DNA of 64,000 nucleotides from Candidatus Woesearchaeota archaeon (GCA_013329045.1 DUKZ01000020.1:33489-97488); one strand, 5' to 3'; shown: positions 15,949-55,492, counted from the stretch's first letter. The notes: generated by a model not told the origin, from the letters alone. A program made the numbers and translations.

Positions 15949-15960
15949 GTTCCCCCGATT

Positions 15961-18570: not shown

Positions 18571-18776
18571 TCTAAGGTACCCCCTTATCGATCTCTCACC
18601 CCATTTTAGAATGCCCCCAGGCAAACTTAATAGGCAAAAAACATACTCATTATTTAAAGCTTGTGGTTTATTACTATTATAAAATAGTAAATATATAATA
18701 GAATAATATGGTAACGACCATCAAGTGACAAGAATCAAAGGTAATGTTTTAATAAAGGAATAATTAGCCTTCTCCC

Positions 18777-22800: not shown

Positions 22801-23492
22801 TCGGGGAGCGTTTTGATATGCCACCAGCTGATGCTGAGAAGATGTATAATGATGTGCGCACGCTTGCAAAGGCTGACGCAAACTCCTGGATTTCCCCCTG
22901 GCCAAGCTATGTGCAGGGAGTGCAACAATGTAATCAGGGAGGGGATATTCTCCAGTGCCCGCAGGGGATCATGTTCAATCTCACCTCAGAGGAGGCATAC
23001 ATTATTAATCCTGACAAGAGTGTTACTCATCCAAAAGCTGTTGCTTTCGCGGCAACGAATGATACCATAGTCAAGAAATATTCTGAGAACATCCATTCAC
23101 CAGAGTTTGGTATTGCGATCATACCTGCTGACGGAAAATATTATGCTGTGCTAATGGACCCCCGATTGACAGGATCATTGTTCACCAGGATGTTTTTCTT
23201 TCAGGGACACGGCCTTCGCTACTTTGATGCTTTTAGCGTTGAGCGAAATCAGGTTCTTGGCACCCAGGTGTATACATACAAGGTTGATTGGAACGGGACA
23301 GATCCAAACATTGCCCCACTGTTCCCAGAGGATAGCTCAATAGAAGAGAACTCGCGTATTGATGCATCAAAAGCAAGCAATGAAACGGCTGGATTGGGTA
23401 ATGACACTAGGATAATAGACAGTGATAAAGGGAATGAATCTAAAGGAAGCAGAAATAGTTCAGCCCGCTCAAAGAACATTTCCAGTAAATAG
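19875..23492 (+). CDS. aglB: Oligosaccharyltransferase AglB/STT3 family with an unusual roughly 230-aa charged repeat-containing N-terminal extension
   Basis: WWDYGHWFKF (WWDYG motif). About 13 TM helices followed by a large C-terminal soluble domain. The N-terminus holds three copies of I-[EAS]-[IF]-DF-[GS]-K-[IV]-[TK]-x-[FIL]-F-[KR], spaced by KE-rich low-complexity sequence. Confidence 0.85.
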   Translation: MGVGCFMGEDDIEIDFGKITKFFKRDKKKAEQKEAADDQVQGSSAEETPKSGSPEIKEGIKEGANKSAKGDHDDGKNEAGSAQQSGEDAQKDKESAVKKKQNGAHETKDDKEEQDGDEKGQSDDEIAIDFSKITGIFRKKEAREKEKSEAQKKQRVSEERKKKPESADLEKKQNEKEQDSEDAEEEISFDFSKVKGLFKAKGRKEDAEEKVDVQPVVHFVKKNSKVLIMLILLLIPLYIGMEVRTYPNHLPIADDMAKEVVQRSIQAQIIDQVNNQYPNLPAAQRQKILEKEYQRVVKENQAGIDQQVQLYGNYIRAQMKVGEEDSQTYLLAIDPYHWARYARNIADHGYPGDDLREGQSYDTLMHAPLGRYVSGDRFHAYFEAYLYKFVRLFDKDADFQGVIFTTPIIIIVLGIIPTFFLARMIAGDIAGFVAALIIAVHPAVMSRTVGGFADTDPYQILFPLLISLLFMWAYELKKVQGKILLVTFAGLLVGLYASAWRGYWHILDFLMVVAITQLSFYLLVHWSEVKKGLFSKEAVTHGAIILITFILASGMFIGVFSEHAPLDIFREATGQPVKFSTAKDVGITSIWPNVLTTVAEQNEASRSEIISTVGFGGKSAGKFLFFLCFFGIAVAVTERSWKRKKDMVFLGASAIYYLVIISMNDRIENTLTLFFLLAVPLIIKAYLAIDEKDEHIRMRYAALIFVWIIATMYASQKGIRFTLMMVPALAIGLGVAVAFLFELIDRYASREMKVEKYLITGFLFLLLFLALYKGPVAAGKEVAKNQIPGMNDAWWSALERIDGAASQDAIITSWWDYGHWFKFVAKRGVTFDGASQNLEPAHWVGLVLLTENETEAKDILRFLTCGNFYTHEFLLRSNWSSDPYDQVMLLKEIIPQSREEARQTLIKKGFPEGSITQLLDYTHCDPPEDYFIASDDMVSKSGVWAHFGIWDFKRAYIYNTLIKQEYASKEKAIAWLGERFDMPPADAEKMYNDVRTLAKADANSWISPWPSYVQGVQQCNQGGDILQCPQGIMFNLTSEEAYIINPDKSVTHPKAVAFAATNDTIVKKYSENIHSPEFGIAIIPADGKYYAVLMDPRLTGSLFTRMFFFQGHGLRYFDAFSVERNQVLGTQVYTYKVDWNGTDPNIAPLFPEDSSIEENSRIDASKASNETAGLGNDTRIIDSDKGNESKGSRNSSARSKNISSK

Positions 23493-36169: not shown

Positions 36170-36720
36170 CAATGAATGGCCCAATCGGGGCAGAGCCCCG
36201 GGGTATCTCCTCAAAAACTTATGAGCTTTAACTGATTGGGGTCACCGCCTTGCTTCCTAATATATTCTTTCATCTGCTCTTCTCCATAGCCATCGCCAAC
36301 AGTATCAATGTGTCCTCCCTCTGTCCAGAAGTGACCTCCCCACAATTCCTCACGGAGCTTAGGAAACCTCTTGAACGTTTCTTTTGCAGTAATGCTTTTA
36401 CAAATCATCATCACTTGCGATGGAGAGTATCGAGGCGCTGCCTCGACAAGAATATGTAAATGATCCTCATCAGTCCCCATCGCATGAAACTGCAAATAAT
36501 ACCGCTTACCAATGCCAAGTAAGATTTCTTTCAAATATTTGCTCACCTCATCGGTGAGTAAATCCTTACGATACTTGACAACAAATACCACATGATATCG
36601 GATGCGATAACTACAATAAGAAGCATAACGCACTTCCATAAAAAGAAAAAAAGCGTCATGTATTCATAAAATGAGAGGCACTACGGGGCAGAGCCCCGGG
36701 GTATTTACCCAAATAGGAAT
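36170..36720. mobile_element. IS200/IS605-family element (tnpA only), with the same hairpin motif at both ends
   Basis: CGGGGCAGAGCCCCGGGGTAT at 36186-36206 and 36684-36704, in direct orientation. They flank a Y1-transposase gene. Confidence 0.65.
36211..36639 (-). CDS. tnpA: IS200-like HUH/Y1 transposase
   Basis: YHVVFVVKYRK...HLHILVEAAPRYSPSQV is the classical IS200 TnpA pattern. 142 aa. Confidence 0.85.
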   Translation of the reverse strand: MEVRYASYCSYRIRYHVVFVVKYRKDLLTDEVSKYLKEILLGIGKRYYLQFHAMGTDEDHLHILVEAAPRYSPSQVMMICKSITAKETFKRFPKLREELWGGHFWTEGGHIDTVGDGYGEEQMKEYIRKQGGDPNQLKLISF

Positions 36721-40878: not shown

Positions 40879-42511
40879 CATGGACATTGCCGCAATAATT
40901 CTTATTGCAGCAATCGTGCTCTATCATCTCTCTCCTTTGTTTGATCATCAGCTAAAGCATGATTTTCCCTACGGGATGATGGCCTCGGACACATTCCAGC
41001 ATCAGACAAGGGCTGAATCAATTAAGCTCATGGACAATTACAAATGGGAAGCTCCCTGGATCGTCGCTGGCTTTACCGACAATCCTGGCTTTTACCAACC
41101 GATTATGTATCATCTTGGTGTGCTCCTCTCCCACTTAGCCGGCCTTGAGACATATGACACCGCCTATTACGTGATAATCTTTCTGTTGATGCTTGGGATG
41201 ATTGGTATGTATGTCTTGATAAGAAAGTTCCATCCGCTCGTTGCATTCCTTTCTATTCCTTTGATGTCACTTGTGTTCATGCAGCAGCCAACTATCGGCC
41301 TTACCTGGGGGCATTGGCCAAGCATTGCTGCCCAAGGCTTCTTGATAGGATTCTTATTCAGCATCATGTTCCATAAGGAGAAAGGGTGGTGGGTTATAGA
41401 GGGTATACTGCTGGTTGGCATTTTTCTGGCTCATAGTTCAGAAGCGATCTTTGCAGTGATTGTACTGGTAATAGCAGCAGTGATCCTTCTTGTAAAAGGG
41501 GAGTGGAACAAAGATGATATCGCAAGTCTAGCGAAGGCGGCTCTGCTTGCAGGGGTCATCTCGTTTTGGTATGGTATTATTTTCTGGAACACCTGGCGGT
41601 TAATGGAGCCCTTACGTTTTATTCCTCTTCCTGCTTGGAACAACCCAATATCGCTGTATCTGAAGGATTTTGGCATCATTTTGATAGTGCTTGTCATTGG
41701 CATGGCTCTTGCTGCCATAACTGCAAAGAAAAAGCTCCATGTCCCCCTCCTGTTCTCCTATATCTTCATCGTGCTGGGGTACACAAATTATATTGGATTT
41801 GGTAAGCGGTCATTCCAGTTCCGCATGCTCTGGCCAGTCTACCTCTCATTGTTCTTTGGGATCGCATTGTACTCGCTGATTCAGGCGCTTGACAAGAAGG
41901 CAAGGCCAATTGCAGCAATAGGCATATCACTTCTGTTTATCTTCCTCTTCATAGGGCCGGTTCATGCAAAGGCTCTGCCCCATACAGTCATCTTCAACGG
42001 CCCAGGCCTGATGGATCAGCAGCACTGGGACGCTTTCGAGTTCATCCAGGAAAATACCCCAAAGGATGCATCAATCTATTTCCTGTATGGGGACATGTAT
42101 AGCCAGAATGCGGTCCTAAGAAATGCAGAAAGGACGCATTATCAAATTGACAATGATGACTACATTGCATCAATCCAGAATGCCACCTTGAGAGGTGATT
42201 TTCTGGGTATTATCAGGGGGGATTCCCATGGTGTTTCTTACACATACAGAAAAGGCCTCTTAGAGTTTGGCCATTATAAGACAGAGCTTGGGGATGATTA
42301 TTTTTATAAGAATTATGATATCTGCACAATGGATTATGTTGTATTGGACACAGCAAGCCGCCAGCCAGTCATTGCCCAGTATAACACACTGATCGCAAAT
42401 GAGATGGTGCAGCATGGAACACATCAGATTGTCTTTAACAATGGCATAGTAGCGATCCTAAAGAACATCAAAAAGGGGGAAACGTGCATTGAACCAAAAA
42501 AGCTTGCTTGA
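40847..42511 (+). CDS. Polytopic membrane protein, GT-C-like (ArnT/PMT-like) candidate with a C-terminal soluble domain
   Basis: The start is probably at ATG 40862 or 40880, just after the upstream stop. The C-terminal domain shares the motif pattern IYFL.GD...DYVVLD...I..FNNGI with 53936..55492 and 58968..60512. Confidence 0.45.
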   Translation: MEHYSMEKKNSMDIAAIILIAAIVLYHLSPLFDHQLKHDFPYGMMASDTFQHQTRAESIKLMDNYKWEAPWIVAGFTDNPGFYQPIMYHLGVLLSHLAGLETYDTAYYVIIFLLMLGMIGMYVLIRKFHPLVAFLSIPLMSLVFMQQPTIGLTWGHWPSIAAQGFLIGFLFSIMFHKEKGWWVIEGILLVGIFLAHSSEAIFAVIVLVIAAVILLVKGEWNKDDIASLAKAALLAGVISFWYGIIFWNTWRLMEPLRFIPLPAWNNPISLYLKDFGIILIVLVIGMALAAITAKKKLHVPLLFSYIFIVLGYTNYIGFGKRSFQFRMLWPVYLSLFFGIALYSLIQALDKKARPIAAIGISLLFIFLFIGPVHAKALPHTVIFNGPGLMDQQHWDAFEFIQENTPKDASIYFLYGDMYSQNAVLRNAERTHYQIDNDDYIASIQNATLRGDFLGIIRGDSHGVSYTYRKGLLEFGHYKTELGDDYFYKNYDICTMDYVVLDTASRQPVIAQYNTLIANEMVQHGTHQIVFNNGIVAILKNIKKGETCIEPKKLA

Positions 42512-42869
42512 GGACATAAAGAATCTGGGAGGGCTAGTAACCATAGCAGTAGTCATTGTTCAAGTGTTCTTTAGCAAGACAAACATCTTGATAACCGCAA
42601 GGCTTGTTATTTCTCTCGTATGGATTTCCCTCATTCCAGGGTATGGTCTTTTGCTGACATGGCGAGAGAGGCTGACCTTCTTGGAGTATAGTGTTCTTGC
42701 AGCATTTGTTGGTGCCTCAGTAACAGGAATCCTCAGTTATCACCTGGGCCTCATTGGAGTTAATTTGTCATCACAACCAATCCTTCTTCCGTTAATCTTA
42801 TTAATGATTGGCATTGCCATCGAGTGGAAGGTGAAAAAACATGAAACCGCAAACCCATCTCACCGTTAG
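42489..42869 (+). CDS. Small hypothetical membrane protein
   Basis: 126 aa with 3-4 TM helices. Overlaps its neighbours. Confidence 0.4.
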   Translation: MNQKSLLEDIKNLGGLVTIAVVIVQVFFSKTNILITARLVISLVWISLIPGYGLLLTWRERLTFLEYSVLAAFVGASVTGILSYHLGLIGVNLSSQPILLPLILLMIGIAIEWKVKKHETANPSHR

Positions 42870-43263
42870 CACGCTCCTCGCAGCCCTTTTCTACCCATTG
42901 ATCGGCTGGAATGCCCTATGGGTATTCATGACAGGATTTCTGGTGGATCTGGACCATTTTATCTATTATTATGCAATAAAGAGAGATCTTAGCATTAAAG
43001 GTTTTTTTGAGTTTTTTGGGCCAGAAAACCAGGAGTTCCACCAGGGGTGCATGTGTATCTTCCACAGTTTTGAGATTCTCGTCATTTTTATCGTCGCAAG
43101 TTTCTTTTCGATGGTCATCTTTGCAGCAACAGCCTCCCTTGCCATCCATTACTTGATGGATTATATTTATGAAAAGGGTATTTCTGGAGAGGGGTATGTA
43201 AAATCCATGTCCCATATTGCGTATGCAAAAAGAAAGCGCATGAAGCAAAATCAAAAGAAATAG
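42841..43263 (+). CDS. Hypothetical membrane protein
   Basis: 140 aa with 3 TM helices and an LVDLDHF motif. Its last 7 codons are part of the 108-nt repeat. Confidence 0.45.
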   Translation: MKPQTHLTVSTLLAALFYPLIGWNALWVFMTGFLVDLDHFIYYYAIKRDLSIKGFFEFFGPENQEFHQGCMCIFHSFEILVIFIVASFFSMVIFAATASLAIHYLMDYIYEKGISGEGYVKSMSHIAYAKRKRMKQNQKK

Positions 43264-43346
43264 CTTTTCGCATCATTTTTTTCCAAGGAGGAAATAATTG
43301 GCGATGTGGTCTGGACCGCTATTCCCTTTGATAGAGATGATTTTTG
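43239..43346. repeat. Direct repeat copy 1 (about 108 nt, about 95 percent identical to 51849..51957)
   Basis: atgaagcaaaatcaaaagaaata ... tttttttccaaggaggaaataattggcgatgtggtctggaccgctattccctttgatagagatgatttttg. Confidence 0.85.
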
Positions 43347-43459
43347 ATGCAATGACTTTTCTCATCCTTCGCCACCGTATCATCTTGAACTTCGAGGCAG
43401 AGCGTCAGGGAATGAAGGAAGATGATGTGATTCAGAAGTTAATAGATAAGATAAAATAA
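43304..43459 (+). CDS. Small ORF (51 aa) with a strong AAGGAGG SD inside repeat copy 1
   Basis: MWSGPLFPLIEMIFDAMTFLILRHRIILNFEAERQGMKEDDVIQKLIDKIK. The first 14 codons are duplicated at 51915. Confidence 0.3.
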   Translation: MWSGPLFPLIEMIFDAMTFLILRHRIILNFEAERQGMKEDDVIQKLIDKIK

Positions 43460-43622
43460 GAAAGGACAAGACGAGAAAGAGAGCAATCTCTCTTCTAGTG
43501 CGGTATTCGAATGAATATATAGTATTAATAGGTTATATTACAAAGATTATTATGAGGAGAATAGACACGCTTATATAGTTTGAAGTTTCAAATAAAGTTT
43601 CAAGGGTTATTTATTAAAAGAG

Positions 43623-46600
43623 GTGGGAATAATAAGCAATCATCCACAGCTTAACTTGATAATTGGATTATTTTTGCTTATAGGCGTGGTTATAGTAGTT
43701 GCTTCTGATGAAATATCAGGGAAAGGGGGCCTTGAGGTAAATCATTCTGACAGGGTATCAGGACATTTAGAAGATATGATAACAGGTATTGATGATGAGA
43801 AAGTTGAGAGACTGATCATTAAGTTTAAAAGTTCCGATGATCACAACTTATCTGCGTTTGATACCATAAAAGAGATTCCAGGTAGGAATCTTGTCACAGT
43901 TAAAGGTAGTATCAAGCATATTTCGCAATTGTTGGATGACCCTAATGTTGAGTTTATTGAGATTGACCAGAATGCCTCTTTGCTGGGTGATTCGTTGGGT
44001 TATGGTGTTGTGTTAACAAAGGCTCCTTTTGTGTGGAACCAATCGATGGGCTTGGGTGTCAAGGTGGCAGTGTTGGATTCTGGCATTGGAGTACATGATG
44101 ATTTAAGCATTTCTGGGGGGTATTCTGCTGTGAGTGATGATTATTTTGATTCTTATGGCCATGGTACGATGGTTGCTGGTGTTGTTGGTTCTTTGTTTGA
44201 TGACGAGGGCATTGTTGGCGTTTCCCCTTCTGTTGAATTATATGCTGTGAAGATTACTAATTCTTCCAAGGGGTTTATCTCAGATGCTATCCAGGGCTTG
44301 GAATGGGCTATTGATAATCATATGGATGTTGTGGTCATGAGTTTTGGCTTTCCTGAATATTCTCAGTTATTTAAGGAGGCTGTCCAGGATGCGTATGCTG
44401 AAGGTATTGTGTTGGTCGCAGCTGCCGGGAATGATGATAATGCTGAGATTCTTTATCCTGCTAAGTATACTGATGTAATCAGTGTTGGAGCAGTTGATGA
44501 GTATTTCCAACGATGGCCACAAAGCAATCATGGTGTTGATTTGGAGTTGGTCGCTGCTGGCGTTGACGTTAACACTACGGTTTTGGGTGATGGATATGCA
44601 TTGGGCACTGGCACCTCGCTTGCTGCCCCTCATGTTGCAGGCATTGCTGCCTTGCTAAAATCATACAACAATTCATTGTCAAATGAGGAGATTCGGGCAA
44701 AGCTGCGCAGTGATACGCGTGATTTAGGCGAACCTGGCAGGGATGATTATTTTGGTTATGGACTAGCTCAGGTGAACTTGAGCTTTGGATCAATGATTAT
44801 CAATGATTCTTATTTTTATGAAGTGTTTAATGTCACCGGTTATGGTACCGAAGAACAGGGAGAAATCTTTTGGCTGAATGGCACGGGAACAATTGATGAT
44901 GTTGAGTTTGCACCGGGCGTGTTTAAAGTTGTAAAATATCTCGATCCGATTGAAGAAAAAATAATTGTGGTTGAAGAAGGAGGGGAATTTCAGTTACTGG
45001 TTTCTGCAAATCTCGAAGATGATTTTAATAAAGAGGGGTCTACATTTTTTGACAACATAGTCTGGTACAATGGAAGTATGAAGATGTACCTGAGTGGAGA
45101 CATTGAATATGTTGATGCAATTTGTGTCAATATATACAAGTTAGATAACCAGTATGACTATTGTATTTATAAGACTGGAAAGAAAACTAGCTGTGACACT
45201 TATTCATCAGGAAGCTCTAATTATGATAGAATTTCCTTCCATGATGTGTGCGCGAATTATCCTCAAAATTGCACAGAAGGTGATGTTTTACAATTCCTCA
45301 ATATGAGGACAAATAAAACCGGAAGAATCTCAGATGAAGTGACTGCTTTCCTGAATTGTGAGAGCTCACCTAATTATGATAATGAACCAATTGATTTCGA
45401 TGTTATCAATACAAAAAAGGCACGATGTACATCAAGCACAACATATGATACTGAAGGATACAAAAACGCCCCAAGTTGGCTGATTATTTCAAGCTATTCA
45501 TGCACCCAAGGTCGTCTATGTAGCTCTTCTTTAGATGAGATCAACATCACAGACCCGAATAGTCCTGTAGCAAACCCCTGTGGTTGCAACGGCACTATTG
45601 AAGTGAACACTGTTGATAATAATGAGGATCCCATAGGGGATCTATCTGTTTACTTAAATGGTATTTTCCAAGATAGCGTAGATGAGATTGGACAAGTACG
45701 TATAGATTTTGGTTCTGTCCAATGCAATTCAAATCAAGAAGTCACGGTGAAATGTGCAAACCAGTCAAAAACTTGTGGTACGAAGTCCACACAGATAGAC
45801 ATGAATAATGACTATGATTCATTGAATTTTGACTGTACACTATGCAAAGAAGATGCACCTGACATCTGGATAGACAATACACATATTTACCTGGACATGG
45901 AAAGTAATACGGTAAAAGTGGGGGTGTTTTCCACAAGCATATCAGGCAGTACATCGGTAAGATTGCAACGAGTTGATGATGATGGGATTTTGCAGCCAGA
46001 ATTGAATGAGGAGGTGACCTTAGTTCCTGGTGGAGTAATGAATGTAACATTTTCTTTGCTTTCCATAGAGAAAGGGGATTATCTCCATATCTCTCTTGAT
46101 CCTGATAATGATATCGAACAGGAGGACAACACGAATAATTATTTGTTCCGTCCTGCCTTAAAGCCAATCAACGTCTATATAACGATGGATATTGACAGTT
46201 CATTTTCCGCAGCGCAACCGGTTATAGAAGAGTTCATAGGATCATTCGTTAACATGGTAGATACTGAAGGAGAGGCTGATGTGATTGTTGAGATTCGCGA
46301 ATCCTTTTCATTGACTGATGGGGCTCACACCATCTTTTCTGATGGCAAGGTAGTTGTCAATCCGTATGGAGCTGAAGTTTTCAAAACAAGTTCAGGATCA
46401 AAACCATTAGTGACTGTAACTGGAAACCGGATCGAAGGCATTATTGCAGGAGTAAAACGCATGATTAATGCCAGGAACATATTCTTGAACAAGGACATGT
46501 ATTTTTCTGATTCAATCATTGATGATTATGACCGGCTGGGCATCAGTGTCTTCGATGTGATGCACAACGAAGAACACCAACCAGTATTCTCTGCAAACAA

Positions 46601-47723
46601 CACACAATTCGCAGAAGTCGTCAGGAAAGTGTTGTTTGACAACAATTTTGAGGTCAGCATCAAACCAGTGAAAACGTTAAACACCACATCCTACAACAAA
46701 TCAACAATATTACGAGTCAAGCACGTCAACTCAGATTTCTCACAAGATTACAAAGACGCAATAGGAATAAACGACACGCCAGTGGTGATGGCAGGCGGCC
46801 TTTTTTCAGACCTTTTTACTTTCAATTCATTCGGCAAGGAACTTGCCGCAAAAGGGTATGATGTGTGGCTTATTGAGCTCACTGGGGGCCCCTATACTGA
46901 CCTTGAGACTAATGATGGTTGTGGAAGCCAGTGTCCAAACTATACGTATGATGATCTTGTGGATTTTTACTGGCCTGCATTGGTCGCAGGAGTGATAGAG
47001 TATTCAGACAAACAAAAAATTAACTATCTTGGTCATAGCAATGGAGGGCGAGTAGCGTTATCTTCGCTAAACAGTTACTCCCAGTCTGGAAAGAACAATG
47101 CAGGATATTATTTCGATTATGGAACCGGTAATTATGTTTATTCAGATTTGCCGGCATATCCAGTAGATAAGTTTTTCGGGATTGGGGTTCCGGCATCTCT
47201 AAATGATGAGACCCCCTTTACAGAGGCGGTAAGATACGAAGTGAATTATTCGTATCCACCAGGTCAGAAGACTGGTAACATTGCGATATCGAGAATTGAT
47301 AGTAACGGGTTGTCCCATATCAGAAAATATGACTACGCAAAAACATTAGCCACCTATGCTCCCATCGATCTATATAACCTTTTTAACCTAGCTTTCTCTT
47401 TAAGAGATCGGGGGATGATTTCAAGAAATTTAATGTATGATTATAATCAATTAGCACTAAACGAATCAAATGAGATTGACCTATCGACATTTGATGTTAG
47501 TAAGATTATACTCATAAACACAAAGCCTGATGATGTTATTCTTGGAATTCAGGATCAGGAAAGAGTTTTCAACAAGACAATTTTAATTGCAGACACAAAT
47601 AAAATCTCTTTAAATTTTACTAGAAATGTTTATCTTGGTGTATTCGGAGCAATTAATTCACATCATGGAGCTATAGCATCTAATAGTCATACAATCGAGT
47701 TCGTGATAGAGGAGTTATCATGA
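43623..47723 (+). CDS. Subtilisin-like serine protease (peptidase S8) with a very large Cys/Asn-rich C-terminal extension (1366 aa)
   Basis: VAVLDSGIGVHDDL (Asp), HGTMVAGVVG (His) and GTSLAAPHVAGIAALL (Ser) catalytic motifs. An N-terminal signal anchor. The start codon is uncertain (GTG at 43623). Confidence 0.8.
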   Translation: MGIISNHPQLNLIIGLFLLIGVVIVVASDEISGKGGLEVNHSDRVSGHLEDMITGIDDEKVERLIIKFKSSDDHNLSAFDTIKEIPGRNLVTVKGSIKHISQLLDDPNVEFIEIDQNASLLGDSLGYGVVLTKAPFVWNQSMGLGVKVAVLDSGIGVHDDLSISGGYSAVSDDYFDSYGHGTMVAGVVGSLFDDEGIVGVSPSVELYAVKITNSSKGFISDAIQGLEWAIDNHMDVVVMSFGFPEYSQLFKEAVQDAYAEGIVLVAAAGNDDNAEILYPAKYTDVISVGAVDEYFQRWPQSNHGVDLELVAAGVDVNTTVLGDGYALGTGTSLAAPHVAGIAALLKSYNNSLSNEEIRAKLRSDTRDLGEPGRDDYFGYGLAQVNLSFGSMIINDSYFYEVFNVTGYGTEEQGEIFWLNGTGTIDDVEFAPGVFKVVKYLDPIEEKIIVVEEGGEFQLLVSANLEDDFNKEGSTFFDNIVWYNGSMKMYLSGDIEYVDAICVNIYKLDNQYDYCIYKTGKKTSCDTYSSGSSNYDRISFHDVCANYPQNCTEGDVLQFLNMRTNKTGRISDEVTAFLNCESSPNYDNEPIDFDVINTKKARCTSSTTYDTEGYKNAPSWLIISSYSCTQGRLCSSSLDEINITDPNSPVANPCGCNGTIEVNTVDNNEDPIGDLSVYLNGIFQDSVDEIGQVRIDFGSVQCNSNQEVTVKCANQSKTCGTKSTQIDMNNDYDSLNFDCTLCKEDAPDIWIDNTHIYLDMESNTVKVGVFSTSISGSTSVRLQRVDDDGILQPELNEEVTLVPGGVMNVTFSLLSIEKGDYLHISLDPDNDIEQEDNTNNYLFRPALKPINVYITMDIDSSFSAAQPVIEEFIGSFVNMVDTEGEADVIVEIRESFSLTDGAHTIFSDGKVVVNPYGAEVFKTSSGSKPLVTVTGNRIEGIIAGVKRMINARNIFLNKDMYFSDSIIDDYDRLGISVFDVMHNEEHQPVFSANNTQFAEVVRKVLFDNNFEVSIKPVKTLNTTSYNKSTILRVKHVNSDFSQDYKDAIGINDTPVVMAGGLFSDLFTFNSFGKELAAKGYDVWLIELTGGPYTDLETNDGCGSQCPNYTYDDLVDFYWPALVAGVIEYSDKQKINYLGHSNGGRVALSSLNSYSQSGKNNAGYYFDYGTGNYVYSDLPAYPVDKFFGIGVPASLNDETPFTEAVRYEVNYSYPPGQKTGNIAISRIDSNGLSHIRKYDYAKTLATYAPIDLYNLFNLAFSLRDRGMISRNLMYDYNQLALNESNEIDLSTFDVSKIILINTKPDDVILGIQDQERVFNKTILIADTNKISLNFTRNVYLGVFGAINSHHGAIASNSHTIEFVIEELS

Positions 47724-48274
47724 AACAAGAGACTATTGGTAGCTCAGATATCATATTTTATATTGCTTTCGTTATTTATGGTCAATTTTTAGCATCATAC
47801 CAAACAATAACGACACCATTGTCTAATGATCAGGTGGTATTAAATTTAATAATGAGTCTACTTGTTAGCGTTTTAATACTTTATTTTACCCGACTAAATC
47901 CCATTAGAAAATATTTTAAAGGTATCAGATCACGACAAGTATTGTTTATCTCAATCATCTTGATTATAACATGTATTTTTCTGTTTTCATCGGTCTTCTC
48001 TTCAAAGAGAGTGTTAGATAACACTGTCGTTCAGATTCAAGAAAAAATTTATAGAGAACAGAGTTTCACGAATAAGATAACAGTTAGTCTTATGATAAGC
48101 TCCTTCTTATATTCAATTATATTTGCTTTTCAGCTATCAAAGAAATTTGATGAAAGAATCGACATTAATCTAACATATATCTATTGGTTTACCTTATTTT
48201 TTGTTCAATTTTTAATGATGCACACAATCGCATTGATAATAAGTGGACTTAGAAACATGGGGTTTGGATTATGA
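47720..48274 (+). CDS. Hypothetical polytopic membrane protein (AT-rich)
   Basis: 184 aa with 5-6 hydrophobic helices. ATGA overlap with the subtilase gene. Confidence 0.4.
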   Translation: MKQETIGSSDIIFYIAFVIYGQFLASYQTITTPLSNDQVVLNLIMSLLVSVLILYFTRLNPIRKYFKGIRSRQVLFISIILIITCIFLFSSVFSSKRVLDNTVVQIQEKIYREQSFTNKITVSLMISSFLYSIIFAFQLSKKFDERIDINLTYIYWFTLFFVQFLMMHTIALIISGLRNMGFGL

Positions 48275-48318
48275 TAGACGGCCATATAATAGAATGTTGG
48301 GATGTTTGGGAGATTGAA

Positions 48319-48439
48319 ATGAATGAAGGGTCTTATACTGACCTTGAGACTAATGATGGTTGTGGTTCTTCTTGCTGTGATTATACTTATCAAAGCCAGG
48401 TCGATTATTATTGGTCAATTTTAGCGAGGGGTACTAAAT
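48319..48439 (+). CDS. Small ORF (40 aa) that is a diverged duplicate of a subtilase C-terminal segment
   Basis: tatactgaccttgagactaatgatggttgtgg is identical at 46893-46924 and 48338-48369. MNEGSYTDLETNDGCGSSCCDYTYQSQVDYYW parallels YTDLETNDGCGSQCPNYTYDDLVDFYW. ATGA overlap with the next gene. Confidence 0.3.
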
Positions 48440-51400
48440 GAAAACCAAGAATCTACTGATTGTCTGTATCCTCCTCATCCCTTTTGTCTCTGCTTCGCTT
48501 GATCCGCTTATTGCTTCGTATAATTTTGATTTTTCTTCTGGTGTTTTGGATGTGACAAGCACCTCTCAATTCTTAACTGACTCGGACAATAATGGCGTCA
48601 ATGATACATTGACCTTTAATATCACGACTGCTGCCGGACCATCACAGGAGTATACTTTTCTTATTTCCCTGTTTGAGGGAACTGATCTTGTGCAGAATTA
48701 TTCTGTTATGAATGTTTCAACAATTTACCCTTCTGCACAGGTCTCTTTCCCAACCATACAACTTGTACGGGCCAAGTATAATTATTCTCTCATGGTTTAT
48801 GATGGGAACTCTCTTGTGTATATGGATTATGCTTCAGAAACAATACCTTTTGGAGATGTTGAACGGGGCAACAGTATAGACTTCCTGTCTGATGCTCCCC
48901 TAGGTGATACCGGCATACAGCTCAATGTGACATTTAATGTATCAGTCAATCAGACAGAGAATATTACAGCATTCTTGTCTTTGGGAAATTATTCTACAGA
49001 AGTGATATCTTCCGGTAATTTGCTAACACCCCAGTCTACCATCTCATTGACCATTGATAATTTAACCATAACAGCATCCCACTATAGCGGTGTTATCATA
49101 ATTGATGCAATTAAAGTCGGTGAGAAAGTGTATTTTACAAATTATTCCACGGTGGCCTATAATTATGAGGACTTTGCCCAATACTCTTACATCCAGTCGG
49201 TTACCACCTCTCAGGTTGACATAAATGACAACAATCTATCTGAAGTAGTACAACTCAATCTTACAGTACAAGCAGACTCAGGAGGTATATACACCCTCAG
49301 CTCATCATTATTCGATCCTGAAAAAGAACTGCTCATCTACGCTGAAATCAACGTTACGCTGACCACTGGCCAAAACCAGGTCTTCCTCAATTTTAGCGGT
49401 GAAAAAGTGTATTCATCATACCAATACGGTGATTTCACAATCCCCCTCATTGAACTCTCAAAAAATGGACAATCAATAGATTCATACCCATTTGGTATAA
49501 CACTAACAGACCTGATATATACGGAGTTTGAACCCCCGGACCTGCCGGATTTGCAGGTAAATCTTTCAACACACCTCGATCTTAGCTCAAATATCACTTT
49601 TATCAATATTACCGTAAGTAATAATGGCTCTGCCCCTGCATTTAATATTTTCCTAGATGTTTTTGATGATAGTAATTTTAGTTATACCTTAGTACAAGAC
49701 TCTCTGAATAGTTCCGAACAGAAACTGTTTAATTTAACTAAGCCCTTCTATTACACCAACAATAACATTATGGTGATTGTTGACATGGAAAATATCGTTG
49801 ATGAATCATACGAAGAGAATAATATCATCGATAATTTTGTGGGAAATCACCAACCTATAGCTTTACCTAGCCAACATCCTTCATATTTCTCTTGCACCGT
49901 TTACACCCCATGTGTATTTTATTGTGATTACAGCGATGAAGACAATGATACCAGGGATACTACAATAATAAAATGGTTTATTAATGATGAATTAGCGCTT
50001 ACTAATTATTCAGTAAATGGAATTTATGAGTTATATCTAGATCCTTTTTATTATAAGAAAGGAGATACCTTAAAATTCGAATGCCAACATTGGGATCAAC
50101 ATTTACTTGCTAGCCAAAAAGAAAATTTCAGCGTATATATCAATAATTCTCTCCCTTTTATCACCACAAACATATCTATTATGCAATTGTACGTCGATCA
50201 AAATTTCACGTTTGATTTTAATGCAAGCGATCCAGATGTGGAGGATGGAATTGACATATTGGTATGGAGCCAAAATTTGTCATTTATGTCACTCAACAGC
50301 TCTACAGGCCTCCTCTCAGGTATACCAAATGAGAGCAATATTGGCAATTACTCCATCCAAGTTAGTGTTTCTGATGGTGATGACATAGATTACAAGAATA
50401 TCAGCGTATGGGTAAGCTATCCCCCAAACATCACAATGAACATCAAGTCCTTACAGGATGATTTCTCCATTGGTGATGTAGTTGGTATCACAGATCCGCC
50501 ATCCATTAGCTCTAAAACAAACGAGGTTGCAACGTGTGTGGGTCATAAATGCTCACTCAGCATATTTAATGCTGGTTTACAAATGAAAGATACAAAGAAT
50601 AAATTAGTTGATTACGCTCAGGGAACTCGTGTGTATCCCGATGCAGATGATATTGTGATTGAATGGTCAGGCAACACTGTCGTACTGCAACCTTTTATAA
50701 TAAAATCCAAGAAGAAATTGCCTGTTTCTGACACTGGGTTCAGCACAAATATTACCTATGAACGTGGGACATATAAAACCGTGCATTATATTGAGGATTA
50801 CAAAGATATAAAGGTGTTTGGGTATGATATTATCTCGTCAGTTGACTGTACAAATAATGATCTTGAGTTACTCTGTGGTAACCAGGTAATTGGTTTTGAT
50901 ATTCTTGAAGAGTCTGGTTTTTCCCTTGATGTTTCACCTACGCGTGTCCTGATTTACGGAAGGAATTTTTCTATAATTGACCCGACAATGCAATTGAATT
51001 ATACAAGTGACATCCATGATGCGATGGTCAAGTATAACAACCCTGACACCAATTATGATGCTGCTAATCTTGAGTCTTCAGATAGGGTCGATAATCAAAG
51101 AGAGAGTATTTTGCGATGGAACTTATCTTCAATACCGCCTGGGTCGACGATCACCAATGCTTCGTTATATATGATGGTTAGACTTTCTTCCTCTTCTGAT
51201 ACAACATATGGGGTACGAGGAGTGGGTAATGATTCATGGATAGAAAGTTCTATCACGTGGAATACTAAGCCGAGCTATGAAACTACACCATATGATACTG
51301 TTGATACTACCCCTTTTGATAATGGGGATTGGATGAGATGGAATATAACATCTCTTGCTCAGGAAAGTGCGGACTCTGATAAGTCACTGTCTCTTGCGAT

Positions 51401-51824
51401 AATAGATGAGGTGAGTGGTGGTACTGCAGCCTGGGGGTGGTATGATTCTGAAACTACAACTGCCTCAAGAAGGCCATACCTTACTATTGATTATGAAGTA
51501 ACACCTGAGGAGAATCAATCCCGTATCAAGAATGAAGGCAATAGCCCTCTTTCAATATACCTTCTTATGAAAATGCAGTTTTTTAATGAGTCAGCGCAGC
51601 AGTGGGTGGATGTAATGACTACGTACTCTTCAAATAGTACAATATCATTAGAACCAGGAGAGATTATAAAATTAGATGAAAACTGGACACTTTGGAATAC
51701 ATCTACCATAAACTATGGATCGGGGACGTATCGTGCTTTTGTAGACGCTCATGATTCCTATGACAGTATTATTTATAACAACGAGGGCAATCCATATGAC
51801 TCATATAACTTCTCATTGTCCTAA
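48438..51824 (+). CDS. Very large secreted Asn/Ser/Thr-rich protein, dense in N-x-S/T sequons, with He_PIG-type Ig-like and a DNRLRE-like region
   Basis: Signal peptide MKTKNLLIVCILLIPFVSAS. Dozens of NxS/NxT sites. SSTGLLSGIPNESNIGNYSIQVSVSDG (He_PIG). VDNQRESILRWNLSSIPPGSTITNASLYM resembles the DNRLRE-domain motif. Confidence 0.7.
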   Translation: MKTKNLLIVCILLIPFVSASLDPLIASYNFDFSSGVLDVTSTSQFLTDSDNNGVNDTLTFNITTAAGPSQEYTFLISLFEGTDLVQNYSVMNVSTIYPSAQVSFPTIQLVRAKYNYSLMVYDGNSLVYMDYASETIPFGDVERGNSIDFLSDAPLGDTGIQLNVTFNVSVNQTENITAFLSLGNYSTEVISSGNLLTPQSTISLTIDNLTITASHYSGVIIIDAIKVGEKVYFTNYSTVAYNYEDFAQYSYIQSVTTSQVDINDNNLSEVVQLNLTVQADSGGIYTLSSSLFDPEKELLIYAEINVTLTTGQNQVFLNFSGEKVYSSYQYGDFTIPLIELSKNGQSIDSYPFGITLTDLIYTEFEPPDLPDLQVNLSTHLDLSSNITFINITVSNNGSAPAFNIFLDVFDDSNFSYTLVQDSLNSSEQKLFNLTKPFYYTNNNIMVIVDMENIVDESYEENNIIDNFVGNHQPIALPSQHPSYFSCTVYTPCVFYCDYSDEDNDTRDTTIIKWFINDELALTNYSVNGIYELYLDPFYYKKGDTLKFECQHWDQHLLASQKENFSVYINNSLPFITTNISIMQLYVDQNFTFDFNASDPDVEDGIDILVWSQNLSFMSLNSSTGLLSGIPNESNIGNYSIQVSVSDGDDIDYKNISVWVSYPPNITMNIKSLQDDFSIGDVVGITDPPSISSKTNEVATCVGHKCSLSIFNAGLQMKDTKNKLVDYAQGTRVYPDADDIVIEWSGNTVVLQPFIIKSKKKLPVSDTGFSTNITYERGTYKTVHYIEDYKDIKVFGYDIISSVDCTNNDLELLCGNQVIGFDILEESGFSLDVSPTRVLIYGRNFSIIDPTMQLNYTSDIHDAMVKYNNPDTNYDAANLESSDRVDNQRESILRWNLSSIPPGSTITNASLYMMVRLSSSSDTTYGVRGVGNDSWIESSITWNTKPSYETTPYDTVDTTPFDNGDWMRWNITSLAQESADSDKSLSLAIIDEVSGGTAAWGWYDSETTTASRRPYLTIDYEVTPEENQSRIKNEGNSPLSIYLLMKMQFFNESAQQWVDVMTTYSSNSTISLEPGEIIKLDENWTLWNTSTINYGSGTYRAFVDAHDSYDSIIYNNEGNPYDSYNFSLS

Positions 51825-51848
51825 AATAGTGAAGAGTTAAGGGAAGCC

Positions 51849-51957
51849 GATGAAGCAAAATCAAAAGAAATAATTTTTGGCGTCACTTTTTTTCCAAGGA
51901 GGAAATAATTGGCGATGTGGTCTGGACCGCTATTCCCTTTGATAGAGATGATTTTTG
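51849..51957. repeat. Direct repeat copy 2
   Basis: It contains the remnant ATG AAG CAA AAT CAA AAG AAA TAA and the same SD plus ATGTGGTCTGGACCGCTATTCCCTTTGATAGAGATGATTTTTG. Confidence 0.85.
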
Positions 51958-52189
51958 GTGAGAGGATGGTAAAGTGTGGCAAAAAAAGAGCTTGCAGTTC
52001 CTCTTGTGTCGCATAATAGAAGGTTGTTCCTGTAGGGCTTTGCCTAATTTGGTGTTTGCCTCCCCCATACTCACTGCTATCGATATGAAAGGAAACAGAG
52101 AGGTACTTTCCCTTAGGTAAAAGGAGTTTTGAGTCCCGTTTGATGTGCTCATCCCACCTCTCCCAGGGGTATACAAAATAGAGTGTCCC

Positions 52190-52330
52190 AGCCAGGAAGC
52201 TTGCCTATTCCGACAAGGCGGCCATTATTATTGTTGAGGTTGTTGTTGCTGTTGGCATTGGAATTATTGCTGCCGACAGAGCCAAGCCACACGAGCCGCC
52301 CAGAGTAGCCATTCCACCTTTTTGTATGTC
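52190..52330 (-). pseudogene. Gene fragment paralogous to the C-terminal region of 52578..53342
   Basis: About 70 percent nucleotide identity over about 120 nt. Translated ...GRLVWLGSVGSNNSN...GRLVGIG versus MRLVWLGSVDNYSSD...GRLVGVV. No intact ORF. Confidence 0.5.
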
Positions 52331-52577
52331 ACCACCACTTCATTGCTATTGTGGTTGTATGCGAAAAAATCGAAGATTTTTTGCACACAAGAAATTTTCA
52401 ATTTCTTCGCGTTTTATAACGATATTTCATCATGGTGAAATGACGTGTAGTTCCAAGCTTACTATTGTAAGCTGGGACAATATGTAAGAGATATAATAAT
52501 TTAAAATATTATGGTTTAAGTTGCACTCCTGATGTTGGAACATAAACCTGACCATCATACTCAAATGGTCTTCCAAC

Positions 52578-53342
52578 TTAGAGTGCATCAATTACAGAAT
52601 TATCAAGATCAGATTTCGCTGCCGCAACGCCTCCGGCGCTGATTGCGACTCCGTCGCTAACTACCCCGACAAGGCGGCCAAAATAATAGCTGAGGCCAAG
52701 GTCGCTGCTGGCATCGGAACTATAGTTGTCGACAGAGCCAAGCCACACGAGCCGCATCCCTTCAGAGGTAGAAGGAAATACCCCCATACAGTCTTTTACT
52801 GATCCTCCTCTTGCTTCTTGAACAAGAGCAAGGGTTTCATCAAACAGATCGTCAGCATTATCCTCCCCTCGAAAGGCGAATTCCTTCCAAAATGCCTCAC
52901 GCCTCTCTGGAAGAGCATATCTGGTATTCCTTAATGCTGCAACTTCATCTTGGGTGAATATATACACACCATCCGATTCCCGGAAAGTTTCATAAACATC
53001 AGCATCAACGGGGAGTGACCAATTGACTAATTGATCAGTTGAACGAAGAGAATGTACTAAATCACGTCCCTGCTTATTTTCGTATGGAACAGCGAGCATG
53101 CTTCCGTCACTTCCAACAATAAACATGTCTGCAGTGGTGAAGTAATTATCACGGAATCGCTGTCTGTCAAAATGAACAGCTGCAGCATCGGATTCATCAA
53201 CATCACGAACACGCGCAATGAGAAAATCATAGAGAGTCATTGGTGTTCTGTTTTCACCTAACAGCACAGATATCTGTTCGACCGGTTCGCCTGGGAAAAG
53301 TTTATACAATGAAAGACTTTCTGTAAGTTTTTGTTGAAACAT
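52578..53342 (-). CDS. Hypothetical cytoplasmic protein
   Basis: ATG at 53342 with AGGTG 9 nt upstream. 254 aa. No recognised motif. Confidence 0.5.
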   Translation of the reverse strand: MFQQKLTESLSLYKLFPGEPVEQISVLLGENRTPMTLYDFLIARVRDVDESDAAAVHFDRQRFRDNYFTTADMFIVGSDGSMLAVPYENKQGRDLVHSLRSTDQLVNWSLPVDADVYETFRESDGVYIFTQDEVAALRNTRYALPERREAFWKEFAFRGEDNADDLFDETLALVQEARGGSVKDCMGVFPSTSEGMRLVWLGSVDNYSSDASSDLGLSYYFGRLVGVVSDGVAISAGGVAAAKSDLDNSVIDAL

Positions 53343-53439
53343 AGTGAGCACCTGCTTATTGGAGACAAGTAATAATTACCCATATATAAACCTTTCGCAT
53401 TAATTACTACTCTTAAGTAAGAATAAATTTGATCTTTAA

Positions 53440-53617
53440 TGTTTATAAAAACATGACAACCGCCACCTTTCCAGCATGCTCGCCCCCCCCGAAAATCGAA
53501 AAGATCTGTACGAGACCCTCTGTTCTTATACCGCTCTTCTGCTTCTTTTGGAGGGAACCCTCTTGTCCATACTGCGCCTGGCTTTTCATAGATGGATTCA
53601 AAGAGTTCTTTGCTCAT
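53440..53617 (-). CDS. Small ORF (about 45-58 aa) translationally coupled (ATGA) to the upstream gene; contains a G8 homopolymer near its 3' end
   Basis: MSKELFESIYEKPGAVWTRGFPPKEAEERYKNRGSRTDLFDF... All three frames terminate within about 20 codons after the poly-G. The annotated 119-aa continuation reads through the next promoter region and is unlikely to be real. Confidence 0.3.
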
Positions 53618-53991
53618 GATGTTTTCTCTTTCTTATGAGAAGATTGGTAAGAGATGTGCACAAAATAAGCTGCTATGGCAAGAATCACAAAGCAAACCAC
53701 AAGTGCCTGCCACAATCCGATGTAGGCTCCAGCATAAAATGCGAAGGTGGGAATTACTCCAAGCCCAAGGAAAACGGAAATAATGATCCGTTCTATCTTC
53801 TCGAGCATCGGGAGCATGTAATAGAAGGGAACGATATAGAAAATACTAAATCCAAGGACTGTCCGAAGCCCTGTAAGGTGGAACTTCAAGAGGAAGAAAA
53901 GACCAATGATGCCGATCAATGCCCATGATAATTTTTTATCTTTCAAGTTTGTACACCCGTATATTCTCTTGATTATAGAGCAGCGTGTCAT
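53614..53991 (-). CDS. Small membrane protein
   Basis: Hydrophobic 125-aa ORF. Its 5' part overlaps the end of 53936..55492, so the real start may be internal (MLPMLEK...). Confidence 0.35.
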   Translation of the reverse strand: MTRCSIIKRIYGCTNLKDKKLSWALIGIIGLFFLLKFHLTGLRTVLGFSIFYIVPFYYMLPMLEKIERIIISVFLGLGVIPTFAFYAGAYIGLWQALVVCFVILAIAAYFVHISYQSSHKKEKTS

Positions 53992-55492
53992 TCTGGAGGG
54001 TTTGTTGTTCCCACCCTATCAGCTGCTGGGCTACATCCTGCCGTCCAAGCATGACAAGCTGGGAATAGTCCACAACAACATACGAGCTCAAATTCGCGAA
54101 TTCATGCTCTGTTCCGATAAGGTTGCTGTCATATGCAGCGCTTCGCTGTGCCAGGATATACATCCATTTCTTCACGGGATACACAGCAGTTCCGGCAGAC
54201 AAGTAAACAGCATCCTCTGGAATGTTCATTTGAAGATAGTTCATGGCATCATATTCCGCTGGATTTACCCGGGATAAGGGATCATTTGCAGATTGCAGTC
54301 TGGCGAGTGCCGGTTGTGCATTCCATACCCAGAACATCCCGGCAAAGAGGAGTATGATAATACCAGTTACCACTCTCCTTTCTGCTGACACGAGTGATGA
54401 GATAAAGGTGATCAAAAACATGATTCCCAGCACGATCAGGGGATAGAACAGGTGGGACTCGGCTGCAAGCATCCGATGGGTTCGATAATCAAGGATGCCA
54501 AACAGTTTGAGGTGGAACAGGATATACAAGGACAGCATCCAGGAGAGCATGAGGAGGTGCTTTGTGTCCCGTTTCATGAAAAGAAACACAACCCCAAGAA
54601 GGATAAAAGGAATCAGCCAATACCCATACATATCCTTGAAAGAAAAGTAGGTTTCTGGGGTTCCATGGAAATTATCCTGTGGGATGAACCAAGAGAAGAA
54701 TCCTCCAACGTTTGAGAGTCCAAGCTTGATGCCTGCTTGTTGTTCGGAGAGTTCCCCTGTATACTTGAGCGTCGGGAGGAAGAGGACAAGAAAGATTACC
54801 CCTGCAACCGCAATATGTATCCAGTCAAATGGCATCTTGCGCTCTTTGATGATCATTACAAGACTAAATATTCCAAGTGCAGCGGCGCTGTGCAATAATC
54901 CTTGGGGGTGCTGGAAATACTGGAAGACGCAAAGGAGAGCTGTCAGATAGAGATACACAAGTTTTGGCTTTCCTTCAAAAGCACTGGTAAGATATCGGTA
55001 AGCGGTATAAAGGATTACCGGAAGATAAAAGTAGCTGATCTGTTGTGGCCACTGGCTCCATAAGTACACGTTGATGTCCCGCATCGAAAAAAGGGAAAGG
55101 ATACCGGCAAGAAAGCCAGCCCACATGCCAAATAAATGCCTAATCAGGAGAAAAACAGCAGTCCCGATGAGCATCCCTTCAAATGCTATCAGGAGGTATG
55201 GCCCAATGATCCGCTCCCCGCTGATGATCTGCAGCAAAGCAATGTTATGGTGGTATTGCGGCGGGTACCAGATTTTGTGATTATTCACATGCCCTTTTGC
55301 CCGGTCAAGGTAGGGGGGAAGCGTCTCGACAGGCATATTCGTCGTTCCTGCATAGTCCCCAATGCCAAAATGCGTGGCAGCATCCACATCTCCAAAGGGC
55401 ATGTCATTGACGGGGATAAGGTACATGCTCATACCGATAAGAAGAAGGGCAAAGAGCAAGAGCAGTTCAATGTGGTGTTTTGCCAGCTTCAT
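53936..55492 (-). CDS. GT-C-like polytopic membrane protein (ArnT/PMT/GT39-GT83-like candidate) with a C-terminal soluble domain
   Basis: 518 aa, about 11 TM helices. The C-terminus is AVYLSAG...YVVVDYSQL...IRVYKL, paralogous in pattern to 40847 and 58968. 4-nt overlap with the GT9 gene. Confidence 0.5.
   Translation of the reverse strand: MKLAKHHIELLLLFALLLIGMSMYLIPVNDMPFGDVDAATHFGIGDYAGTTNMPVETLPPYLDRAKGHVNNHKIWYPPQYHHNIALLQIISGERIIGPYLLIAFEGMLIGTAVFLLIRHLFGMWAGFLAGILSLFSMRDINVYLWSQWPQQISYFYLPVILYTAYRYLTSAFEGKPKLVYLYLTALLCVFQYFQHPQGLLHSAAALGIFSLVMIIKERKMPFDWIHIAVAGVIFLVLFLPTLKYTGELSEQQAGIKLGLSNVGGFFSWFIPQDNFHGTPETYFSFKDMYGYWLIPFILLGVVFLFMKRDTKHLLMLSWMLSLYILFHLKLFGILDYRTHRMLAAESHLFYPLIVLGIMFLITFISSLVSAERRVVTGIIILLFAGMFWVWNAQPALARLQSANDPLSRVNPAEYDAMNYLQMNIPEDAVYLSAGTAVYPVKKWMYILAQRSAAYDSNLIGTEHEFANLSSYVVVDYSQLVMLGRQDVAQQLIGWEQQTLQNDTLLYNQENIRVYKLER

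Follow-up and report, generated by a model that had tools for sequence, protein, structure and literature searches.

The window analyzed here, 64,000 nucleotides of DNA from Candidatus Woesearchaeota archaeon (GCA_013329045.1, DUKZ01000020.1:33489-97488), carries an operon for two giant secreted proteins, an S8 subtilase and a CARDB-domain glycoprotein, which is bracketed by two copies of a short direct repeat, R1. The source population belongs to the DPANN, derives from groundwater metagenomes, and includes the metagenome-assembled genomes (MAGs) GCA_013330465.1 and GCA_013331745.1. A first-pass annotation made from the sequence alone had seen in this segment an insertion or duplication of the kind produced by integrative elements, and had proposed that the cargo was a horizontally acquired surface module. 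Here, we present evidence that the operon is typical of the Woesearchaeota and that it lies at a junction whose content varies across the clade, and we suggest that the repeats are a scar of its relocation by host recombination. The features of the locus are listed below in window coordinates; loci compared from related genomes are designated by L numbers.

42489-42869, plus strand: m126, small membrane protein, last gene of the conserved YfhO-M554-m126 block and left side of the conserved junction
42841-43263, plus strand: YdjM-like membrane protein, 140 aa, lineage-specific, of normal third-codon-position G+C content (GC3), with its 3' end in R1-left
43229-43349, plus strand: R1-left, comprising the last 7-10 codons and stop of the YdjM-like gene, a run of seven T residues (T7), AAGGAGG, and the first 14-16 codons of a small open reading frame (ORF)
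43298-43459, plus strand: chimeric small ORF, 53 aa from TTG or 51 aa from the ATG at 43304
43623-47723, plus strand: S8 subtilase giant, 1366 aa, predicted to be secreted, in which a long middle region separates an S8 domain from a C-terminal alpha/beta-hydrolase domain
47720-48274, plus strand: multi-pass membrane protein of 184 aa, strongly AT-rich (GC3 0.28), with a 4-nt overlap between its start and the S8 stop
48271-48441, plus strand: 56-aa ORF, relic of a gene for a hydrolase-domain paralog, of which L011, L036, and L056 retain intact versions
48438-51824, plus strand: CARDB/He_PIG/CBM96 (DNRLRE) glycoprotein, 1128 aa, predicted to be secreted, with 49 N-X-S/T sequons
51839-51960, plus strand: R1-right, comprising MKQNQKK and stop, the T7 run, a Shine-Dalgarno (SD) sequence, and 16 codons, followed by unrelated sequence
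51961-52577, no strand: gene-poor relic zone, in which 52198-52300 duplicates 52654-52756, a C-terminal coding part of the 257-aa gene, at ~80% nucleotide identity
52578-53351, minus strand: 257-aa protein (254 aa as called), without a family match, of low GC3 like the operon, and absent from this position in relatives
53614-55492, minus strand: p125 and the DUF6541 GT-C-like membrane protein, right side of the conserved junction

The operon and its bracketing repeats

The family assignments and the 49 sequons agree with the cargo originally described, a giant S8 protein, a membrane protein, and a sequon-rich giant secreted protein. The S8 domain is matched with an E value of 3e-51 and its D, H, and S motifs are present, the hydrolase region possesses a GHSNG elbow, and the whole protein contains 27 sequons (gene callers also start it at 43686). 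Sequon density in the CARDB protein reaches 4.3 per 100 aa, compared with 0.1-0.9 in the other giant proteins of the window. The S8, 184-aa, 56-aa, and CARDB genes each overlap by 4 nt. Around them lies a glycosylation neighborhood that includes AglB/STT3 (19875-23492), GT-C proteins of the YfhO, DUF6541, and PMT_2 types, GT2 and GT9 proteins, and methyltransferases. Archaeal N-glycosylation (agl) gene neighborhoods are organized around aglB/STT3 and contain glycoprotein substrates. The window resembles such clusters in that AglB/STT3, GT-C proteins, GT2, and GT9 surround a sequon-rich protein; it differs from them in that the lineage is DPANN and the link is one of gene neighborhood, and in that an S8/hydrolase partner is not known from agl clusters.

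R1 consists of two copies in direct orientation, 114-122 nt long and ~94% identical, on either side of the S8-CARDB operon. The blastn alignment of 43234-43346 to 51844-51957 spans 114 columns, among which there are 6 mismatches and 1 indel (93.9% identity, E 4e-43), and at the widest extent (43229-43349 and 51839-51960) 112 of 122 positions are identical. The narrower boundaries first assigned to the repeats, 43239-43346 and 51849-51957, yield 103/109 identical positions (94.5%), in line with the ~95% then claimed. A 42-mer from the repeat core occurs exactly twice in the window, compared with 0 occurrences expected from 100 shuffles. The divergence between the copies is uneven: a repeat search resolved a 74-nt sub-alignment at 99% identity (43276-43349 with 51887-51960) and a 54-nt sub-alignment at 83% (43229-43282 with 51839-51892), and there is 1 difference in the 3' 74 nt versus 9 in the 5' 47 nt (Fisher p = 8e-4).

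Both copies hold the elements that had been recognized in them, namely the last 7 codons of the gene at 42841-43263, an SD sequence, and the first 14 codons of a small ORF. Within R1, the coding end of the YdjM-like gene specifies MKQNQKK followed by a stop codon, TAG in the left copy and TAA in the right, and the T7 run and the layout AAGGAGG-N6-TTG / N12-ATG are kept in both. The 5' edge of R1-right lies 15 nt 3' of the CARDB gene stop. Its 3' end falls on the same repeat nucleotide as that of R1-left, beyond which the sequence continues into unrelated, gene-poor DNA. An oligo-T run is the usual archaeal termination signal, and the T7 run in R1-left is probably such a terminator. RNA folding of both strands of both copies revealed no consistent above-background fold common to the copies; one of the four strand/copy folds reaches a z score of -2.9, while its counterpart in the other copy reaches only -1.1. 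No terminal inverted repeats were found at the segment ends, and a 24-mer of R1 had no match in metagenome, genome, and viral contig collections, which evidently do not contain contigs of this organism.

The small ORF that begins in R1-left had been treated as a gene that could be sought in other genomes, and it turned out to be not a gene family but a chimera of 15 repeat-encoded codons and the relic of a MoxR (AAA_3/AAA_lid_2) ATPase C terminus. Its residues 1-15 are encoded by R1 and match nothing, and residues 16-53 (~43343-43459) constitute the relic. In an exhaustive HMMER search the matches were the ORF itself and MoxR ATPases, with residues 17-53 being 63-70% identical to the last ~36 residues of MoxR ATPases of 312-323 aa. 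A profile of the MoxR C terminus aligns with the ORF from residue 16, and the R1-encoded peptide scores nothing. Because MoxR homology ends at the R1 edge, the 3' edge of R1-left is an illegitimate fusion to a gene relic. The same profile alignment, beginning as it does at residue 16, gives no support to R1-left being the "native" copy with MoxR homology reaching into R1. No intact MoxR gene is present in the window.

Two other relics accompany that of MoxR. The sequence at 48298-48432, in the 56-aa ORF, repeats 46857-46991 at 62% amino acid identity. Several loci retain one to three intact hydrolase-region paralogs between the two giants (L011, at 9779-11884; L036; L056), and the 56-aa ORF and this repeat are therefore best regarded as a paralog relic. 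The other is the duplication of part of the 257-aa gene within the relic zone. A tblastx comparison of the relic zones with related loci and with the window itself returned nothing beyond the three repeat pairs.

Independent assemblies from NCBI, JGI, ENA, and Logan yield more than 40 contigs with the same arrangement; at identities of at least 99.98%, these represent one clonal population. Since the arrangement recurs across so many independent contigs, it is not an assembly artefact. No island-free variant occurs among them. Apparently divergent variants (L052-L055 and P0001) differ only by 0-2 single-nucleotide polymorphisms and by gene calling. An apparent 140-bp deletion in MAG GCA_013330465.1 is actually an NN scaffold gap (L001 19764-19765) inside the 257-aa gene, at window positions 52604-52743; the gap adjoins the short-repeat copy at 52654-52756, which shows that the pair 52198-52300 / 52654-52756 disturbs assembly. 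Two contigs deserve separate mention. The first, L048 (JGI 3300009296 Ga0103681_1000352), is identical to the window up to a break at 52387, located at a small hairpin (AGAAATTGAAAATTTCT), and continues with a ParM-like gene and the TraG_N, TraH, TraF, and S26-peptidase genes of bacterial F-type conjugation at a GC content of 0.49 versus 0.44; it is most likely a chimeric assembly rather than a real junction. In the second, L049 (ERZ28564140 scaffold_1220), which comes from a single sample, the alignment breaks at window ~55138-55167, where the DUF6541 gene is called as two proteins of 148 and 299 aa, and the next 3 kb are 99.7% identical; either a variant within the population or a misassembly of the GT-C gene may be responsible.

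A variable junction and a clade-typical operon

A scan of genome contigs with a flank protein identified 31 Woesearchaeal loci, onto which the window proteins were mapped; 26 of these reach far enough downstream to be informative about the junction. The conserved gene order in relatives is YfhO(+) M554(+) m126(+) followed by p125(-) DUF6541(-). In 15 of the 26 loci (for example L012, L015, L019, L025, L026, L027, L034, and L035) the m126 and p125/DUF6541 genes form a tight junction with no S8 operon between them, eight carry an insert of 0.7-2.6 kb, and the remaining three an insert of 3.5-9.2 kb (L033, L044, and L021). In the window, 10.7 kb separate the two sides (42869 to 53614). This interval begins with the YdjM-like gene, R1-left, and the MoxR relic, continues with the S8 operon and R1-right, and closes with the relic zone and the 257-aa gene. 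Surface proteins of the PKD and FG-GAP types are encoded in the L021 insert, and GT2 genes are present in the L020 and L033 inserts. Other cargo at the junction among L014-L044 includes methyltransferase-like genes and, in L044, an ORF with a 42-nt tandem repeat. No flanking repeats were found around the inserts of L020, L021, L024, L033, L036, and L044. The convergent m126 | p125-DUF6541 junction is a clade-wide hot spot for variable cargo.

Given that relatives possess a tight junction without the S8 operon, the window segment is an insertion relative to the ancestral order. The earlier proposal of an insertion or duplication thus stands insofar as the segment is inserted or rearranged with respect to the Woesearchaeal order (15/26 tight junctions), but not as to the integrative-element route. 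A junction lacking the island had been suggested as a check, and m126 and p125 do abut in those 15 loci, although the comparison extends only to distant relatives. The inserted part was also drawn too narrowly when it was taken to be bounded by the repeats: relative to relatives it comprises the entire 10.7 kb between 42869 and 53614, rather than 8.6 kb.

This situation recalls the flexible genomic islands (fGIs), of replacement and additive types, described by Rodriguez-Valera, Lopez-Perez and colleagues, which encode exposed cell structures at conserved positions (PMC4119200). As in fGIs, the position between m126 and p125-DUF6541 is fixed and its content varies among relatives, the cargo is related to the surface and to glycosylation, its GC content is below that of the core, mobility genes are absent, and host recombination is presumed. 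Whereas fGIs distinguish strains within one species, here one clonal population is compared with lineages at 30-42% protein identity. Moreover, the cargo operon of the window is conserved in the clade, unlike fGI cargo that is swapped for a functional analogue.

Approximately 40 full-length homologs of the S8 giant, at 35-43% identity, were recovered, and those with names belong mostly to Woesearchaeota/Nanoarchaeota; none among 5.8 billion proteins exceeds 43% identity. The S8 giant is about as distant from its homologs as the flanking M554 is from its own. The nearest sampled non-self homolog is 43% identical for S8 versus 42% for the flanking M554, the corresponding values against L012 are 40% and 38.5%, and against L036 both are 36%. 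In seven loci (L011, L012, L013, L036, L056, L057, and L058) an S8 gene is followed by small ORFs and then a CARDB-type giant, all on the same strand, with homology to the neighboring gene pair extending over S8 residues 36-1365 and CARDB protein residues 1-488. The N-terminal ~480 aa of the CARDB protein are the part conserved in the operons of relatives. In L012, L056, and L058 two further genes (~200 aa and ~450-570 aa) lie directly upstream of S8, and in L013 they lie downstream; tblastn searches with these two usual upstream genes gave no match anywhere in the window.

A full Woesearchaeal operon thus comprises the two upstream genes (with DUF2341 in L011), the giant S8 plus hydrolase protein, a small membrane protein, zero to three hydrolase paralogs, and the CARDB giant. 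It adjoins YfhO/DUF6541/PMT_2 glycosylation genes in at least four lineages. Its position is not constant: in L012 it is inverted and on the other side of YfhO, in L036 it is directly upstream of M554, and in L011, L013, L057, and L058 it occupies unrelated contexts. The S8-CARDB cargo is a conserved operon typical of the clade.

Composition had been one of the arguments for an insertion or duplication. Per-kb GC is 0.34-0.43 within the segment versus ~0.45-0.49 outside it, and GC3 in the S8, 184-aa, and CARDB genes is 0.36, 0.28, and 0.36, respectively, versus ~0.50 in the flanks; after correction for amino acid composition the deficits are -0.10, -0.22, and -0.10 (z -7.6, -6.0, and -6.8). 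The computation bears out the claim that the enclosed region is more AT-rich, except that the low-GC3 tract passes the right repeat and extends to the 257-aa gene at 52578-53351 (-0.12). Two other large genes, at unrelated loci of the window, are also GC3-poor, 15961-18624 (-0.10) and 9271-15948 (-0.05). This minus-strand region, 9271-18624, encodes a 2225-aa adhesin-like protein with Big_9, Cadherin_5, and He_PIG domains and an 887-aa protein of no family; in contrast to the CARDB protein, both contain very few sequons.

The operon has a lower GC3 than its flanks in six of the seven other lineages, whose hosts range in GC from 31% to above 45%. The differences, operon minus flanks, are as follows.

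L011: -0.11
L012: -0.08
L013: 0.00
L036: -0.23
L056: -0.25
L057: -0.08
L058: -0.12
Window: -0.12

An unrelated surface-protein insert at the same hot spot, that of L021, shows a difference of -0.11. The recurrence of the deficit in 6/7 other lineages suggests that low GC is a property of this class of genes rather than a sign of recent import. The proposal of a horizontally acquired module is consequently not supported: the operon is conserved in the clade, its nearest homolog is as distant as that of the flanking gene (43% versus 42%), and its GC3 deficit is shared by most lineages that carry it.

Origin of the arrangement

We favor, with a probability of about 0.58, the interpretation that host recombination reshuffled a lineage-typical operon into a flexible junction within the glycosylation region and that the R1 copies are a recombination or duplication scar. 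An old Woesearchaeal S8-CARDB operon would have been relocated into the variable convergent junction m126 | p125-DUF6541, within the conserved GT-C/AglB neighborhood, by one event, or two closely linked events, that fused the operon block to a short resident sequence. The moved block would begin with the final ~37 codons of a MoxR gene and end 14 nt beyond the stop of the CARDB gene. A resident stretch of ~115 nt, with the 3' end of the YdjM-like gene, the oligo-T terminator, and the SD-led start, would thereby have come to flank the block on both sides. During the move the two upstream genes of the operon would have been lost and the MoxR 3' fragment gained at its left end.

Two routes can be envisaged. 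In the first, a Campbell-type single crossover of a circularized block carrying an R1 homolog would explain both edges in one step. In the second, a tandem duplication would have been followed by deletion of the second cargo copy, which would fit the decaying tandem paralogs seen here and in relatives. Later gene conversion, or constraint on the 74-nt part, could then have produced the uneven divergence of R1. The T7 run of R1-left would end the YfhO-M554-m126-YdjM transcription unit, and that of R1-right would end the S8-CARDB operon, likely as a side effect; its location directly after each transcription unit is a plausible reason for the retention of R1. We infer the recombination route, the direction of copying, the terminator role, and the agency of host recombination without an element integrase.

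The locus shares several properties with segmental duplication and deletion scars in surface loci. Short direct copies of a gene end stand beside the intact gene, the R1 copies end at switches to unrelated sequence, and two more relics (48298-48432 and 52198-52300) lie in the same 10 kb. It likewise resembles arrays of decaying tandem paralogs, given the intact tandem hydrolase paralogs of L011, L036, and L056. It departs from such scars in that the R1 copies are 8.6 kb apart around a whole operon and diverge heterogeneously, where uniform neutral divergence along the copies would be expected.

Several observations weigh against relocation by host recombination. The distribution of R1 differences (1/74 versus 9/47) is not predicted by a single neutral duplication; to account for it, one must assume gene conversion, selection acting on the 74 nt, or two donors that differ in age. 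The GC3 deficit of the operon across many lineages could itself have arisen from repeated transfer. The gene 3' end with its stop, the identical core, and the imperfect arm of R1 also fit the att sites of integrative elements. Finally, the collections searched contain no relative that exceeds ~42% protein identity; how the locus looked immediately before the event was therefore never seen, and import from an unsampled Woesearchaeon is possible.

Such an import is the first alternative to be weighed, and we consider it unlikely. According to this explanation, an 8.6-kb block was recently acquired from a lower-GC Woesearchaeon by homologous recombination, in the manner of replacement and additive fGIs, with R1 as the recombination site. 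It would account for a GC3 that is 0.10-0.22 below expectation even after amino acid correction, for the location of the operon at a different place than in L012 and L036, for the loss of the upstream genes, and for the foreign-looking MoxR relic at the start with no intact copy in the window; a GC of 31-35% is common among Woesearchaeota. However, the same deficit occurs in 6/7 other hosts, including those of 31% GC, and in further genes of the window for surface proteins; among 5.8 billion proteins, homologs reach no more than 43% identity, the same as for the flank gene; and all of the more than 40 contigs of this clonal population carry the island.

We think it quite improbable that the segment is a degenerate or trans-mobilized integrative element, in which the R1 copies would be attL and attR and a recombinase, its gene lost or elsewhere, would have targeted the 3' end of the YdjM-like gene. 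In archaeal and bacterial elements of tyrosine recombinases, the att direct repeats duplicate the 3' end of the target gene. The segment resembles att-bounded elements in its direct repeats at both ends, which carry a gene 3' end with the stop preserved (TAG/TAA), in the 74-nt near-identical core and imperfect 47-nt arm, in the switch to unrelated sequence at both repeat edges, and in the different composition of the enclosed DNA. Against this, Pfam, NCBIfam, and PHROGs detect no integrase, transposase, or other mobility gene among the ORFs between 42.5 and 54 kb, in agreement with the first-pass annotation on the integrase, and the stretch between 42.8 and 53.6 kb encodes no excisionase, replication, or transfer function. 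The clade carries this cargo as an ordinary chromosomal operon, and the repeat carries the 3' end of a 140-aa gene that is neither a tRNA nor a conserved gene: a homolog search with the YdjM-like protein returned only itself, with no homolog outside this population, making it a poor att target. R1 is unmatched in the viral, genome, and metagenome collections, which evidently do not include this organism; a search of viral contigs with an S8-giant alignment matched only generic S8 catalytic domains, so the giant is not on viral contigs; and other inserts at the hot spot have no flanking repeats. The comparison with integrative elements therefore lacks support, there being no mobility gene, no terminal inverted repeats, and a "target" gene confined to the population. 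Nor does the segment resemble a transposon or insertion sequence (IS), as its ends have no inverted repeats, the ~115-nt duplication is far above the length of target-site duplications, and no transposase lies inside.

A lone IS200/IS605-type Y1 transposase gene (Y1_Tnp, Pfam E 2.5e-33) is present at 36211-36639 on the minus strand, 6.6 kb from R1-left, between the glycosylation cluster and genes of sugar-phosphate metabolism, with no visible link to the repeat. There is no tRNA near the repeat. Elsewhere in the window, at 3020-3137, Rfam identifies a 118-nt tRNA (47.5 bits) that ARAGORN missed and that is presumably an intron-containing archaeal tRNA, which fits an archaeal source.

Just as doubtful as an integrative element is the possibility that R1 (in full, or at least over its 74-nt part) represents a functional cis-element, an oligo-T terminator with an SD-led leader, kept by selection or gene conversion. 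It is suggested by the abrupt change from 99% to 83% identity between the two parts of R1 (p = 8e-4), by the intact T7 run and AAGGAGG-N6-TTG / N12-ATG layout in both copies, and by the placement of each copy directly after the end of a transcription unit. But only two copies are present in the window, and none in the collections, which evidently do not include this organism, and there is no consistent or significant RNA fold common to both. The two ORFs that start in R1 run into unrelated sequence, one of them a pseudogene relic, and share no conserved product; the absence of synonymous differences points to recency or gene conversion, not to selection at the protein level. An artefactual or chimeric assembly, for which the chimera of L048 breaking at 52387 and the NN gap at 52604-52743 in one MAG might be cited, is effectively refuted by the identical arrangement of more than 40 contigs that independent assemblies and assemblers produced and by a 114-nt repeat that is shorter than typical k-mers and reads and has 7 differing positions between its copies.

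A more speculative possibility, to which we attach little weight, is that recombination between the R1 copies, with their 74-nt near-identical core, could reversibly remove and restore the S8-hydrolase/CARDB module, and that the module, a protease fused to an esterase/lipase-like domain together with a heavily glycosylated adhesin-like protein, could be a host-interaction or scavenging apparatus of DPANN that moves among Woesearchaeal genomes as a unit. If so, the presence of this surface module would vary within the population.

As interpreted here, the relocation of the operon belongs to ordinary genome dynamics and adds one more example to a known kind; not every AT-richer block flanked by repeats is a mobile island. 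As by-products, the analysis recognizes a widely conserved S8/alpha-beta-hydrolase-CARDB operon that is found repeatedly beside GT-C/AglB glycosylation genes and is AT-shifted at synonymous sites in most lineages examined, as well as a hot spot for variable surface-protein cargo at the conserved m126 | p125-DUF6541 junction. These provide testable leads on how the DPANN cell surface is built and how it varies.

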